Positions 11,007 to 14,913 of a stretch of DNA of 26,154 nucleotides are shown here, piece by piece (the stretch's first letter is position 1; the number at the start of each line of letters is the position of its first letter). The position numbers and the translations under genes were made by a program. The notes under the pieces were generated by a model. That model was given only the letters and a program-made list of their open reading frames with translations, was not told where the DNA came from and searched no databases. Origin of the DNA: Solirubrobacteraceae bacterium (GTDB lineage: Bacteria > Actinomycetota > Thermoleophilia > Solirubrobacterales > Solirubrobacteraceae); the NCBI GenBank assembly GCA_050015415.1, contig JBEKBL010000023.1, forward strand, positions 1 through 26,154. Direction: 5' to 3'.

Positions 11007-12733
11007 GCGGCCAACAGCCCCAGTTTGCTGCCGTCCTCGAGCGTCGCGGCCGGTTCGTCGTCGCTCGCGAGCTGTTTGCTCGAGGCCGCGGCGGGGGCGC
11101 CCTGCCGGGCACCGGCGGCCAGCTCGCAGTTGATCCGGCGAGATCGCGCTCGCGCGTCGGCGACCTCGTGCTCGTGCGGCTCCTACCTGGCAGGCGTGGT
11201 GGGCGCGCCGAGATAGTCCAGAGGCTGGGGCGCCCAGACGTCGCACGCGACGTGATCGAGGCACTGATGCTCGAACGCGGACTCCGGCGCCGCTTCGATC
11301 CCGCGGTCGAGCGCCAGGCGCGGGAGTCCGTGGGCGCAGCCGGAGATCGTCGCGACCTTCGCGAGCTCCCGACCTTCACGATCGACCCCACCGGCGCCCG
11401 CGACTACGACGATGCGATCTCGGCCGAGCGCCTCGCGGATGGTCGAACGCGGATCCACGTCCACATCGCTGACGTGGCGGCGTTCGTCACGGCGGGCTCG
11501 CTGGTTGATCGCGAGGCGCAGCGGCGCGGCACGAGCGTCTATGTCCCCGGTGGCGTCGAGCCGATGCTCCCGCCGGCGCTGTCGAATGAAAAATGCTCGC
11601 TCGTGCCGGGTGAGGATCGCTTCGCAGTCACGGTGGAGCTCGATTTCGACGGCCCGCGCGTCACGCGCGCCGCGTTCACGCGCTCAGTCATCCGCTCCGA
11701 CGAGCGCCTCGACTACGCACGAGTCGACCGCATCTTCGCCGGCCGCGAGGAGCCGCTCGATCCCTGGGCGCAGCCGCTTTCGCTGGCACGCGATGTGGCC
11801 CGAGCGCTGGCCGCGGAGCGCGCCCGGCGAGGCGGCCTCGAGATCACGAGCGCGGAGCCCGACTTCGAGCTCGACCGCTCCGGTCATGTGCGCCGACTGA
11901 CGCTGGGGGCGCAAACAGAGTCGCACGCGTTGATCGAGCACCTGATGATCGCTGCCAACGAGCAGGTCGCAAAGCTGCTCGAGGAGCGCGCGTTGCCGGC
12001 GCTCTACCGTGTGCACGAGCAGCCGGATCCGGAGCGTGTGGAGCGCCTCGTCGAGCAGCTCGCTTCGTTGTCTGTGCCGACACCGCCGCTGCCCCAGCAT
12101 CTGGCGCCGGCCGCGGCGGGCGAGCTGGTTGGCAAGATTTCGCAGGCGGTCGACGCTTACGTGCGCTCGAGTGGGCGTGGTCGCCTCGCATTTGGCACGC
12201 TGATCCTGCGCTCGCTGAAGCAGGCCTACTACTCGCCGCGCAATCTCGGCCATGCTGGTCTGCGCTCTGCCCGCTACTGCCATTTCACCTCTCCGATTCG
12301 CCGTTACCCGGATCTCATCTGCCACCGCTCTCTGCTGGCGGCGATCGGCGCCGGCGAGCCGGCGCTTGACGCGACCCGGCTCGCAGAGCTCGGGCAGTGG
12401 ACGTCGATGCGCGAGCGCGACGCGGTCGACATCGAGCGCTCGGCCGACGACGTTGCCCGCTGCTTCGCGCTCCTGCGCGAAGATCCCGAGCGTCTCTGGG
12501 ACGGCGAGGTCGTCGGCGTGATCGGCGCCGGCGCGTTCGTCGCCTTCGGCGGCGGCTATGAGGGGATGGCCCCGGTCCGGCGGATGCGTGGCGACTGGTG
12601 GGAGCTGAACGAGCAGGGCACGATCCTCGTTGGCACGCGCAGTGGCAAAACGCTGCGGCTGGGGGACTCCGTCCGCGTCGCGGTCGGTTCGATCGATCCG
12701 CCGCGTGGCCGGGTCGACCTCGACATCGTTTAG
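11003..12733 (+). CDS. rnr: RNase II/RNase R family 3'-5' exoribonuclease (RNB and S1 domains)
   Basis: TIDPTGARDYDDAIS catalytic Asp motif, VHIADVA, LIEHLMIAANE, HFTSPIRRYPDL. TTG start overlaps the upstream stop (TTGA). Upstream of smpB. Confidence 0.88.
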   Translation: MSGQQPQFAAVLERRGRFVVARELFARGRGGGALPGTGGQLAVDPARSRSRVGDLVLVRLLPGRRGGRAEIVQRLGRPDVARDVIEALMLERGLRRRFDPAVERQARESVGAAGDRRDLRELPTFTIDPTGARDYDDAISAERLADGRTRIHVHIADVAAFVTAGSLVDREAQRRGTSVYVPGGVEPMLPPALSNEKCSLVPGEDRFAVTVELDFDGPRVTRAAFTRSVIRSDERLDYARVDRIFAGREEPLDPWAQPLSLARDVARALAAERARRGGLEITSAEPDFELDRSGHVRRLTLGAQTESHALIEHLMIAANEQVAKLLEERALPALYRVHEQPDPERVERLVEQLASLSVPTPPLPQHLAPAAAGELVGKISQAVDAYVRSSGRGRLAFGTLILRSLKQAYYSPRNLGHAGLRSARYCHFTSPIRRYPDLICHRSLLAAIGAGEPALDATRLAELGQWTSMRERDAVDIERSADDVARCFALLREDPERLWDGEVVGVIGAGAFVAFGGGYEGMAPVRRMRGDWWELNEQGTILVGTRSGKTLRLGDSVRVAVGSIDPPRGRVDLDIV

Positions 12734-12777
12734 CGCCCGGCCCGGTGGGGCGAGCGCGCGCACGCTACTGTCGAGCG

Positions 12778-13222
12778 ATGGCCAAGGCCAAGAAAAAGGT
12801 CGCCGCCGGCGATGTCGCGTCCAATCGCTACGCCTCATACCGCTACAACCTGCTCGAGCGCCTCGAGTGCGGCGTCGTGCTCCTCGGCACAGAGGTCAAG
12901 TCGCTGCGCGGCGGAAGCGCCCAGTTGAAGGACGGCTTCGCGACGATTCGCGACGGCGAGCTTTGGCTGCGCAACGTCCACATCCCGCCCTACGCTCCGG
13001 CCAGCCGCGCTTCTGCACCGTCGCGAGATCGACCGTCTCGCAGCACGCGTGGCCGAGCGAGGCCTCACGCTCGTGCCGACACGGATCTACTTCAAAGGGC
13101 CCCATGCGAAGATCGAGATAGCTCTCGCAAAGGGCAAGGACGTCCACGACAAACGCGAGACCCTGCGTCGTCGCGACTCGCAGCGGGAGATCGAGCGGGG
13201 CCTGCGCGAAGCGCGGCGCTGA
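12778..13222 (+). pseudogene. smpB: SsrA-binding protein SmpB, disrupted as assembled by a frameshifting internal deletion near 13009
   Basis: 12778-13008 encodes MAKAKKK...GVVLLGTEVKSLR...WLRNVHIPPYAPASR. From 13010 another frame encodes LLHRREIDRL...GLTLVPTRIYFK...KGKDVHDKRE...ERGLREARR-stop (TGA 13220-13222). The conserved NHxPxRxRK segment is absent. Confidence 0.85.
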
Positions 13223-13225
13223 GGC

Positions 13226-14068
13226 TCAGCCGATCGTGCGGTGAACGTAGGTGAAGTGCATGCCGACTGCCAGCACGATGATCAGCCCGACATAGACCGC
13301 GCCGACGATCATCCGGTTGCGGGGGGAGACCTTGTAGTAGGCGGTCTGTGCCGCCGTCGGGCTGCGACGGCGCTCCCAGCGCCGGTAGAGCTCGAAGCCC
13401 GCGACCAGCGTGATGATCAGCAGCACCGGGTTTGGTGAAACGAAGTCCAGCACGACCATCGCGCCGAAGCCGAGGAACCACATCCACGGCGCCATCGCCG
13501 CCATCGCGCGGCCGCCGTCGAGCGGCACGACCGGCAGCAGGTTGAAGAGGTTGAGGAAGAAGCCGATGTAGCCGAGCGCCTCGAGCAGGCCGGTGTGCGT
13601 CACGAGCCCGACGATCGCGACAGCTGCCGAACCGATCGTCCCGAGGATCGGGGCGGCGAGGCCCACGCGCGCTTCGGCGAGCGCGTCGTCACCGAGCGTC
13701 CGCGCGGTGATCACCGCGCCGAGGAACGGCACAAACATCGGCGCGCTCGCCTTGACCCCCTCGCGCCGCAGCGCGATCACGTGCCCAATCTCGTGGACGA
13801 ACAGCAGCACGACAAAGCCGACCGCGAACTGCCAGCCCCATAGAAGGCTGTAGGCGCCGACCGAGACCAGGGCGCTGGCGGCAGTGACGAGGATCTTGAT
13901 CTTCGGCAGGAACAGCAGTAGCGCCTTGAGCTTGGCGATCAGCGCGACCAGCGCCGCGACGACCGCGCCCAGCTTCTCGCGCAGCCACGAGCGTTTGTGG
14001 CGGCCAAACGCTTCAGTAGGCGCAGCCGGCTCGAGCACGGGCGGGATGGCGGCGGACGGGGGCTCCAT
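13226..14068 (-). CDS. Site-2 protease family (M50) intramembrane metalloprotease
   Basis: VHEIGH (HEXXH), MFVPFLGAVI, LAAPILG, LNLFNLLPVVPLDGGR (NPDG-type motif); several TM segments. Confidence 0.93.
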   Translation of the reverse strand: MEPPSAAIPPVLEPAAPTEAFGRHKRSWLREKLGAVVAALVALIAKLKALLLFLPKIKILVTAASALVSVGAYSLLWGWQFAVGFVVLLFVHEIGHVIALRREGVKASAPMFVPFLGAVITARTLGDDALAEARVGLAAPILGTIGSAAVAIVGLVTHTGLLEALGYIGFFLNLFNLLPVVPLDGGRAMAAMAPWMWFLGFGAMVVLDFVSPNPVLLIITLVAGFELYRRWERRRSPTAAQTAYYKVSPRNRMIVGAVYVGLIIVLAVGMHFTYVHRTIG

Positions 14069-14174
14069 ACCTCTCAGAGTGTGGCAGGAGCTGGTACGGC
14101 GCTTCTAAATGCTGGCCCAAAACACGCTCAACGCACTTTTTTGCGCAAGATGCGGGTTCTCTCCAAAGTGGCCC

Positions 14175-14204
14175 TTGCATCCGCCGGAGCGTCAAAGGTA
14201 TGTT
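14175..14204 (+). promoter_or_regulatory. Housekeeping-sigma-type promoter upstream of the structured RNA candidate
   Basis: TTGCAT (14175-14180), 18 nt, TATGTT (14199-14204), with a T-run upstream. Predicted +1 is about A14211. Confidence 0.6.
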
Positions 14205-14210
14205 GCACCC

Positions 14211-14329
14211 AGACGCGGATTTGAGTCGCAAAGAGCGAGGCCACCGAGGTGTGAGGCCGCGCCACCCAGAGACCGGAAACCCCTCGGGGCGACCGGAGGA
14301 GGGTTCCTCAAGCGGCTCGGTCCGCGTCT
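14211..14329 (+). ncRNA. Unassigned structured small RNA candidate (~119 nt)
   Basis: 5' 14211-14229 pairs with 3' 14312-14329 (18 bp, 3 G-U, one bulge). Inner helix 14240-14249/14282-14290; hairpin 14296-14309. Starts at the predicted +1 of the upstream promoter. Confidence 0.6.
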
Positions 14330-14376
14330 ACTTCGTTGTGTTGCCGGCGCGATATGGCGGGCGGAATCCTGAACGT

Positions 14377-14406
14377 TTGGGCGATCCCGCTCCCCGGCGC
14401 TACGAT
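14377..14406 (+). promoter_or_regulatory. Probable ssrA promoter
   Basis: TTGGGC (14377-14382), 18 nt, TACGAT (14401-14406), 20 nt before the mature tmRNA 5' end. Confidence 0.5.
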
Positions 14407-14426
14407 GTCCCATAGACATTCACCCA

Positions 14427-14790
14427 GGGGACGACAGGCTTCGACGCGGTCGGCTCGTGGGAGTGGTTGCGAGTCGAGGTCCCGGGCGGCCTCGTAAAAC
14501 ACCCGGGAAAACCATACGTGCGGACTCTCACGAGTACGCCCTCGCCGTCTAGCTAAAACTAGAGCGATGAGGTCTCGGCCCCCGCAGCCTGCGGCGGGGA
14601 TCACCGGGATCAGATAGCAGGCTCACCCGGGGCGGCCCGCCTGCGCCAATCCGGGGAAACACCAGCAGGCTGGTCCCCCGCAACCCCGCCGGCGAGGCGA
14701 GCGGAGGACGAGATCAGAGCGCCGGCTACGCTCGTAGATGCCACTTTCACGCGATCGCGGACGTGGGTTCGATTCCCACCGTCTCCACTA
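14427..14790 (+). ncRNA. ssrA: tmRNA (one-piece)
   Basis: 5' GGGGACG pairs with 3' CGTCTCC, giving a G3-U Ala identity pair and discriminator A14787. T-arm GTGGG-TTCGATT-CCCAC. Pseudoknot pk1: CGAGG 14475-79/CCTCG 14490-94 and CCCGGG 14481-86/14502-07. Tag ORF in the expected position. Confidence 0.97.
14520..14552 (+). other. tmRNA tag reading frame: (A)ADSHEYALAV-stop
   Basis: GCG GAC TCT CAC GAG TAC GCC CTC GCC GTC TAG after pk1 and ATACGT; the stop sits in a TCTAG/CTAGA helix. Confidence 0.88.
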
Positions 14791-14913
14791 GAGGCAACTA
14801 ACTGCTGCGGGTCGGCCGTCTGCTGCGCTCCCGCGATCACGCGTTTGGGCCTAAGTCGCGCCTCCTTCGGCCCCAGCGTCGCTCGCAACGGCACGTGCTT
14901 GTCGCAGAATTGG

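Follow-up and report, generated by a model that had tools for sequence, protein, structure and literature searches.

In a 26,154-nucleotide (nt) stretch of contig JBEKBL010000023.1, from a Solirubrobacteraceae genome (label G000) that is 74% complete, positions 14211-14329 of the + strand are a real gene, stand-alone and transcribed on its own, whose product is an RNA of ~120 nt with a tight fold. We refer to the whole stretch as the window and to the RNA as the small RNA (sRNA). The sRNA represents a previously uncatalogued RNA family that is well supported, the newness referring to the RNA family, and the family is restricted to one lineage, the order Solirubrobacterales (class Thermoleophilia, Actinomycetota), in which many soil bacteria carry it. 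An earlier reading of the DNA letters alone (the sequence-only reading) had proposed an unassigned, promoter-driven RNA at this place and had likened it to a miniature 6S-type rod. The new RNA family is real, and the 6S interpretation is to be dropped.

The sRNA is predicted to be transcribed from a housekeeping-type promoter of the form TTGCNN-17/18-TAnnTT. A promoter (TTGCAT-18-TATGTT), a start at A14211 and a terminal helix beginning at that base had all been named in the sequence-only reading; each was found where it had been put, and they are conserved in the homologous copies. The pattern TTGNNN-N16-19-TANNNT, placed so that it stops 5-8 nt upstream of RNA position 1, was present in 138 of 155 non-redundant copies, compared to 0.4 for shuffled upstream sequences. 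The spacer was 17 nt long in 103 copies and 18 nt long in 34, and the -10 element ended 6-7 nt ahead of RNA position 1 in 133. From this promoter geometry, the 5' end of the transcript is placed at A14211 by prediction. A consensus promoter scan returned 0 sites at the locus because TTGCAT matches TTGACA at three of six positions, which is below the 4-of-6 rule of that scan, and the blank result is therefore uninformative. Since they are conserved across copies, the promoter and helix features lie far beyond what is expected by chance. At the 3' end, 4-8 T residues were found in the 10 nt after the closing helix in 152/155 copies. This helix (P1) and the U-rich tail would together form an end resembling an intrinsic terminator, and the transcript probably extends a few nt into the tail. 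No reading frame was conserved among the homologous copies, because copy lengths vary from 107 to 130 nt with insertions and deletions that are not multiples of 3, in agreement with the earlier statement that no credible coding sequence covers the region.

Upstream of the promoter, a T-run and a palindrome centred ~62 nt before the RNA start, which the sequence-only reading had not named, are likely to be a transcription-factor site. The sequence TGCG preceded RNA position 1 by 59-61 nt (or 68-69 nt) in 142/157 copies, and the position weights of the element read T-rich..CG(C/G)A-N3-TGCGG, a motif present also in Solirubrobacter soli. The upstream motif and the promoter were combined at only two places in the source genome, and these were its two sRNA genes. 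A few look-alike TGCGG-N4-TGCGG repeats were seen elsewhere in the same genome, on contigs C99, C121 and C208. In several relatives, tandem arrays of 2-3 complete sRNA units were found, each with its own promoter and tail (L085, L090, L160, L329, L316, L319 and L335).

Covariation supports a predicted fold in which helices P1, P2 and P3 meet in a compact three-way junction and the P2 loop forms a pseudoknot with the 3' linker; a MAFFT alignment and two model-based alignments agreed on this structure. The 119 nt of the + strand folded at -60.9 kcal/mol (z = -3.27, with 0/200 shuffles as good), and the - strand gave z = -2.59. Across the alignments, ~92-94% of the cells assigned to helices were paired, compared to 30-52% in slid controls. 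In alignment A3, 93.4% of cells were paired (slid controls, 35-45%), 21 pairs and 156 cells were changed on both sides, and none of 500 shuffles reached the observed values. Alignment A7, which holds 99 copies, gave 92.0% paired cells and 388 cells changed on both sides.

Helix P1 (RNA positions 1-19 with 102-119) was 96-97% paired in its outer segment and 87-88% paired in its inner segment, with compensatory changes at 4 outer and 4-7 inner pairs. Its G-U pairs are frequent and would read C-A on the opposite strand. Helix P2 was 99.8-100% paired, with one pair changing from G-C to A-U in 9/75 and 41/95 sequences, and the base of P1 (GACGCGG/CCGCGUC) is near-invariant in sequence. The P1 base and P2 are kept in sequence as well as in pairing, which points to a sequence-specific partner or to tertiary contacts. 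Towards its 3' end, the P2 loop (L2) always carried a GNRA-like tetranucleotide, namely GUGA, GAGA, GUAA, GAAA, GCAA, GGAA or GCGA. The predicted pseudoknot was 93.3% paired on A3, and its compensatory variants were GAGGU/ACCUC, GAGA/UCUC, GGGG/CCCC, GGGAU/AUCCC, GGAGU/ACUCC and AGGG/CCCU. In the P3 arm, P3a was 93.5-95% paired with 3/4 pairs changing on both sides, its ACCC/GGGU being replaced by GCGC/GCGC, GCGU/ACGC, CCUCU/AGAGG, GCUC/GAGC or ACCA/UGGU, and all 4 pairs of P3b changed on both sides. The support for P3a and the pseudoknot is non-circular, because both helices are absent from the model that made A3.

Two folds had been drawn by hand in the sequence-only reading. The one offered as an alternative, a multi-way junction with a possible pseudoknot, is essentially the conserved fold. 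The rod, with an inner helix GCCACCGAGG/CCUCGGGGC and a bubble hairpin GAGGA/UCCUC, is not: the inner helix was 81-85% paired and the hairpin 76% paired, with 0-2 compensatory pairs, as scored on an alignment fitted to the other fold, and the rod excludes the conserved P2. Inspection by eye raised the internal loop of P3 as a kink-turn, GGGUUCCUC as the site of a T-loop, and an SRP (signal recognition particle) Alu-like domain, and homology to transfer-messenger RNA (tmRNA) was considered through a 16-nt direct repeat of 88% identity; these were either not conserved or not convincing. The repeat joins the P3 region at 14285-14300 (CGGGGCGACCGGAGGA) to a tmRNA pseudoknot region at 14693-14708 (CGAGGCGAGCGGAGGA), and is probably due to chance in GC-rich sequence.

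Contigs of four peat metatranscriptome runs were placed on window positions 13900-14900. In two runs from different studies (X16/P7 and X19/P16), contigs fell on bins 14206-14341 (for example, 14244-14319 and 14255-14326), and the neighbouring tmRNA was covered by all four runs. None of the contigs from these runs lay on 13900-14205, on 14342-14409 or beyond 14818 (to 14900), and none joined the sRNA to tmRNA; the silent flanks served as a control against DNA carry-over. A discrete transcript had been named earlier as a point to check in RNA data, and contigs on both RNAs with silence between them are what was observed. Of 8 words sampled from the sRNA alone, 5 or more were present in each of three further RNA runs from two studies, runs with fewer than 5 being disregarded. 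Promoter, terminator, conservation and presence in RNA libraries were all found, as for a stand-alone gene bounded by a terminator, and the stable, promoter-driven sRNA proposed from the letters is supported.

No RNA family of Rfam 15 accounts for the sRNA. A search of the window with Rfam 15, at gathering thresholds and at E<=10, placed no family on it, and neither did a search with 17 diverse copies at E<=5; the description of the RNA as unassigned and the novelty claimed for it thus stand. The literature, searched for the topic and for words of the sequence, yielded nothing relevant. The SRP RNA (contig C167), the RNase P RNA (contig C109) and tmRNA (14427-14790) were all located elsewhere in the genome, which rules out that the sRNA is one of these. 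ARAGORN and RF00023 gave no match on the sRNA, in which a tRNA-like domain and a tag reading frame are absent. A Y RNA was rejected, as TROVE (Ro60/Rsr) genes were found in 2/151 genomes of the order and not in the source genome, and there was no Rfam Y RNA hit. A regulator dependent on Hfq was rejected also, Hfq (PF17209) being found in 0/151 of these genomes. CsrA genes were present in 138/151, including the source genome; this combination of Hfq and CsrA frequencies is unusual for Actinomycetota. The presence of Ro60, Hfq or CsrA showed no correlation with that of the sRNA across the 151 genomes.

A second copy of the sRNA gene was found in the source genome on contig C102, with 81% identity, both promoter hexamers intact and compensatory changes in the terminal helix. 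In the genus, a DNA search detected the sRNA in 33/36 genomes, usually in two copies. The covariance model detected it in 46 of the 151 genomes of the order, with 1-3 copies in relatives: 17/39 genomes of its own family (f1), 27/39 of f3, 1/18 of f2, 0/38 of f4 and 0/15 of f5. It is patchy even within its own family, and is therefore not essential to the order. In genomes of the order that lack it (G061, G065, G068, G075 and G040), nothing comparable was seen near ssrA, the tmRNA gene, with filters off. Two pattern scans over 185,579 species genomes matched at least 119 and at least 120 contigs; the covariance model confirmed 87 copies in the first 100 loci listed for scan one, and copies in 72/72 loci taken from scan two. 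Among the matches listed, all confirmed copies were in records titled Solirubrobacterales, Solirubrobacteraceae or Thermoleophilaceae, or in unclassified actinobacterial metagenome-assembled genomes (MAGs). Two carriers, Solirubrobacter soli DSM 22325 and S. phytolaccae KCTC 29190, are cultured. Pattern matches outside Thermoleophilia (Mycobacterium, Streptomyces, proteobacterial MAGs and others) failed the covariance model and are due to chance, as are 47 matches in viral contigs, which gave 0 model hits and no link to phages. In a phylum sample of 151 genomes, no sRNA was found in the ~140 that came from other classes. The other orders of the class gave 1 weak model hit in 124 genomes (G272, 31 bits), which may be a distant homologue outside Solirubrobacterales. 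At this hit (L224:1501-1618), AAGAGCG is retained together with a hairpin like P2 and a plausible pseudoknot, GGAGA/UCUCC. The features of the locus are collected in Table 1.

Table 1. Positions in the window of the sRNA gene, its structural elements and its neighbours
Feature	Position	Strand	Remarks
Upstream element, T-run and palindrome CGCA-AGA-TGCG(GG)	14137-14156	+	T-run 14137-14142, palindrome 14144-14156; conserved position; putative
-35 hexamer TTGCAT	14175-14180	+	Direct reading; identical in second copy of the genome; TTGNNN kept
-10 hexamer TATGTT	14199-14204	+	18-nt spacer; ends 6 nt before A14211; TAnnTT in relatives
sRNA, 119 nt	14211-14329	+	Covariance-model scores 137.6 bits (R1) and 133.6 bits (R2)
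P1, 5' strand	14211-14229	+	Pairs with 14312-14329
J1/2, AAAGA (ARAGA in relatives)	14230-14234	+	Unpaired purine strand; columns near-invariant in alignments A2, A3 and A7
P2 hairpin	14235-14262	+	GCGAGGCC (14235-14242) pairs with GGCCGCGC (14255-14262)
L2, loop of P2, 12 nt	14243-14254	+	Closes with GNRA-like GUGA, 14251-14254
Pseudoknot, 5' strand GAGG in L2	14246-14249	+	Predicted partner CCUC, 14306-14309
P3 arm	14264-14304	+	P3a, internal loop AGAGA/AGGA, P3b, variable apical hairpin 14280-14289
P3a	14264-14267 with 14301-14304	+	ACCC with GGGU
P3b	14273-14276 with 14293-14296	+	CCGG with CCGG
Pseudoknot, 3' strand CCUC	14306-14309	+	1 nt past P3a, 2 nt ahead of P1
P1, 3' strand	14312-14329	+	Folding, covariation
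U-rich tail	14330-14339	+	ACUUCGUUGU in the window; CUUUCGUU or UUUUUGUU in relatives
ssrA promoter	14377-14406	+	TTGGGC 14377-14382, 18-nt spacer, TACGAT 14401-14406; direct reading
tmRNA (ssrA), downstream neighbour, outside the sRNA	14427-14790	+	Rfam RF00023, 162 bits; ARAGORN tag ADSHEYALAV
M50 (site-2 protease family) peptidase gene, divergent upstream neighbour	13226-14068	-	Open reading frame (ORF); Pfam PF02163, E = 1.4e-12

The typical gene order in the own family is smpB, the M50 gene (on the opposite strand), the sRNA and ssrA. In the window, the ORF list shows overlapping ORFs at 12598-13254, where smpB lies upstream of the M50 gene. One copy in this family lies 44-300 nt upstream of ssrA, and others lie beside peptidase genes; overall, ssrA was found on the same strand within 300 nt downstream of 61/156 copies, and 76/156 copies lay within 1.5 kb of ssrA. 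Neither the copies of family f3 nor second copies show this linkage. The tmRNA link is a lineage-specific synteny; of the earlier suggestion of a new class linked to tmRNA, the new class stands, and the link stands in the form of ssrA synteny in the own family. That ssrA has its own promoter downstream of the sRNA, as had been read from the letters, agrees with its -10 element, which recurs as TAnnnT (TACGAT, TAGAAT or TACAAT) at the same place upstream of the tmRNA of relatives. In tightly packed loci of the own family (L013, L162 and others), the U-rich tail of the sRNA reaches up to, or into, the -35 region from which ssrA is predicted to be transcribed, and the gap between sRNA and tmRNA goes down to 44 nt.

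Among 87 upstream neighbour genes (alignments A5 and A6), M50 was found 47 times, M29 9 times and PepF/M3 4 times, and the downstream neighbour was a rhomboid gene in 16/52 cases. Second copies are flanked by an M29 aminopeptidase gene, which is divergent, and by a rhomboid gene, which is convergent; in genus g17 the sRNA is divergent from pepF (M3), and in G050 and G108 it precedes pepF. The tandem arrays are often followed by a convergent gene for a pyridine-nucleotide-disulphide oxidoreductase, with tmRNA ~1.4 kb beyond. A conserved convergent gene immediately downstream of the sRNA in family f3 (L205:1594-2631 (-) and its counterparts) gave no Pfam hit at E<=1e-5, and by eye resembles a double split-barrel (PNPOx-like) protein. 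The association with four peptidase families and a ribosome-rescue locus exceeds what we would anticipate for random placement, with a roughly estimated p of 0.001-0.01. Because the shared ancestry of these arrangements is uncontrolled, we take the peptidase neighbourhood as a hint only.

How might such an RNA act? The combination of a covarying compact fold, protected ends, an own promoter, sibling copies and the lack of a downstream gene to control fits a trans-acting folded RNA, and we favour, with a probability of roughly 0.55, that the sRNA works in trans, as a stable folded RNA whose invariant core, formed by P2, the pseudoknot and the junction, binds either a protein or a small ligand. 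It is probably neither a cis-acting leader nor an RNA that pairs over long antisense stretches. Each copy is its own transcription unit, with an upstream element, a promoter, an RNA of ~120 nt and a GC-rich closing helix followed by a U-tail. P1 joins both ends of the RNA, the P2 loop ends in a GNRA-like turn, P3 carries a variable tip, and the pseudoknot (GAGG/CCUC) is positioned to stack on P3a. The invariant core could then contact the protein or ligand partner.

Several points weigh against this model or limit what can be drawn from the data. That a protein or ligand is bound would follow from architecture, namely invariant junctions, sequence-conserved helices, the pseudoknot and the GNRA-like turn, and sibling tandem copies are typical also of base-pairing regulators. 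The distribution is patchy, with 0/8 genomes of genus g16 in the own family carrying the sRNA. The neighbours in family f3 have no relation to proteolysis, being a convergent gene of 325-346 amino acids and SURNod19 or copper-binding genes, and the peptidase and ssrA neighbourhood may be inherited synteny. In peat runs X15 and X17 tmRNA was covered and the sRNA was not, missing cover being no evidence either way. Assembled contigs give no strand, ends or level, and contig depths pool relatives at >=90% likeness, which precludes a ranking of sRNA and tmRNA by abundance; our claim from the RNA libraries is therefore limited to the presence of the sRNA as a separate piece.

A regulator that acts by base-pairing would account for part of these observations. 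Here, an accessible stretch of the sRNA and its siblings, such as the purine junctions or an opened CCUC/GAGG, would pair with mRNAs, for example those of the peptidase neighbours, and alter their translation or stability. The stand-alone unit with promoter and terminator, the 1-3 siblings that are sometimes in tandem, the proximity to genes that could be targets or co-regulated, and a 3' linker (UCCUC) that resembles an anti-Shine-Dalgarno sequence are all consistent with such a role. However, nearly all conserved nucleotides lie within covarying helices or tight junctions, and no long conserved single strand is present. The segments that resemble Shine-Dalgarno and anti-Shine-Dalgarno sequences covary with each other (GGGAU/AUCCC and GGAGU/ACUCC), and it is therefore the pairing that is kept and not the sequence. 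The lack of a detected Hfq in 151 genomes of the order also argues against this possibility, which we consider unlikely but not negligible.

The placement of the gene offers a weak hint at ribosome rescue or proteolysis, and a functional link of this kind is doubtful at present. In its fullest form, the idea would be that the sRNA is the core of a new ribonucleoprotein or a ligand-sensing regulator tied to protein quality control, that it is inherited together with smpB-M50-ssrA and lies next to the M29, rhomboid and PepF genes because it modulates ribosome rescue or peptide degradation, and that it is itself controlled by a factor that binds the palindrome. We offer this version as speculation with the odds well against it.

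If the sRNA were instead a switch or leader acting in cis, the core would sense a ligand, and P1 with the U-tail would be a conditional terminator ahead of ssrA in the own family, or of pepF in G050 and G108. The layout of junction and pseudoknot is aptamer-like, the 61/156 copies close to ssrA are on the same strand as that gene, and in L201 and L217 pepF is on the same strand and starts ~105 nt past the RNA. A position 5' of co-oriented genes was nevertheless not seen in most occurrences: the nearest downstream protein genes were convergent in 44/52 cases, some of them only 3-21 nt away, the co-oriented exceptions being ssrA and, in two lineages, pepF, and it is because mostly convergent genes follow that we do not regard the sRNA as a leader. 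Moreover, the conserved -10 element of ssrA lies between the sRNA and ssrA, and second copies, tandem copies and all copies in f3 are without a downstream gene to regulate. No conserved helix that competes with the P1 terminator was seen, no systematic search for one having been made, and the lack of an RNA contig bridging the spacer at 14342-14409 is weak evidence in the same direction. Regulation in cis is thus improbable.

Similar scrutiny was applied to the proposal in the sequence-only reading that the RNA is a 6S-type rod, or a minimal RNA that binds RNA polymerase like 6S or Ms1. The sRNA is structured and stable-looking, ends in a long helix and occurs with tmRNA in RNA libraries; canonical 6S was undetected in 39/39 genomes of the own family, and the occurrence of two paralogues in a genome is reminiscent of 6S-1 and 6S-2 in Bacillus. 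The 6S model (RF00013) hit 66/151 genomes of the order, including 17/18 of f2 and 34/38 of f4, with none in the 39 genomes of f1 or the 15 of f5, and none of these hits was at an sRNA locus. The sRNA has no central bubble like that of an open promoter and is ~60 nt shorter than 6S, and the rod, poorly kept and without support from covariation, conflicts with P2. Canonical 6S and the sRNA occur together in 12 genomes, which defeats the idea that one replaces the other, and 22/39 genomes of f1 have neither, so that the sRNA fills no 6S gap. This proposal did not survive the comparison, and we consider a polymerase-binding role highly improbable.

A small self-cleaving or otherwise catalytic RNA would fit in size, in its pseudoknot, in invariant junction nucleotides and in the presence of multiple copies, as is seen for small ribozymes in general. 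No ribozyme family of Rfam 15 matched, however, and the sRNA is not tied to mobile elements or phages, as also indicated by the viral contigs without model hits. In addition, the conserved promoter lies at the distance needed to give the 5' end, and cleavage is therefore unnecessary to make the RNA; catalysis would be a surprise. It is even harder to see the sRNA as a sponge that titrates CsrA. This protein is encoded in most genomes of the order, the sRNA is rich in GGA and GAGG, and AGGAUGU is found in the P2 loop of some f3 copies; yet the GGA motifs are few, unconserved and mostly within helices, most copies have GAGGU in the loop, and CsrA is near-universal whereas the sRNA is patchy. Finally, a repeat, a miniature inverted-repeat element or a chance fold, which an 18-base-pair (bp) terminal inverted repeat and two copies in the genome might bring to mind, is already refuted by 1-3 copies per genome at conserved positions, each feature of a gene (promoter, terminator, compensatory changes) and the presence in RNA libraries.

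Solirubrobacterales are among the commonest actinobacteria of soils, peat and permafrost, and to our knowledge their RNA biology is nearly unexplored. Folds as constrained as this one, in free-standing RNAs, usually imply a specific molecular partner, and the partner of the sRNA, if found, could lead to a new system made up of an RNA and a protein, or of an RNA and a ligand. Its repeated placement beside tmRNA and four peptidase families provides a concrete and testable hypothesis, and tests are feasible, the gene being present in two Solirubrobacter species that are in culture.

Comparison with known systems places the sRNA near several of them without identity to any. It resembles 6S (RF00013) and Ms1 RNAs in being stand-alone, promoter-driven and stable-looking, in ending in a long closing helix, in often having two paralogues and in occurring with tmRNA in RNA libraries. 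It differs from them in that a three-way junction with a pseudoknot takes the place of the central bubble or rod, in giving no model hit, in coexisting with 6S, and in size, at ~120 nt compared to ~150-200 nt for 6S and ~300 nt for Ms1. With tmRNA it shares its strand and neighbourhood in the own family, a pseudoknot-rich structure and the same RNA libraries; unlike tmRNA, it has no tRNA-like domain or tag frame, it has a separate promoter and terminator, and in f3 and at second copies the two are no longer linked. The raiA motif RNA, an orphan stand-alone structured RNA of Gram-positive bacteria, is in Rfam and did not match the sRNA. Both are independent genes of Actinomycetota with an intricate pseudoknotted fold, sequence-conserved helices and a function that is unexplained by the neighbours. 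The sRNA, in contrast, is about half the size, is found in one order only, has its own upstream palindrome, and shows no similarity in sequence or model. The preQ1-II and SAM-II-like riboswitches are H-type pseudoknot aptamers with an embedded hairpin. The sRNA differs from these in its enclosure by the 18-bp P1, which doubles as a predicted terminator, in its position, mostly not upstream of co-oriented genes, and in the lack of an Rfam match. What it has in common with them is a hairpin loop that pairs with a downstream strand, an extra hairpin in the third loop, A-rich junctions and helices conserved in sequence, as expected for base triples.

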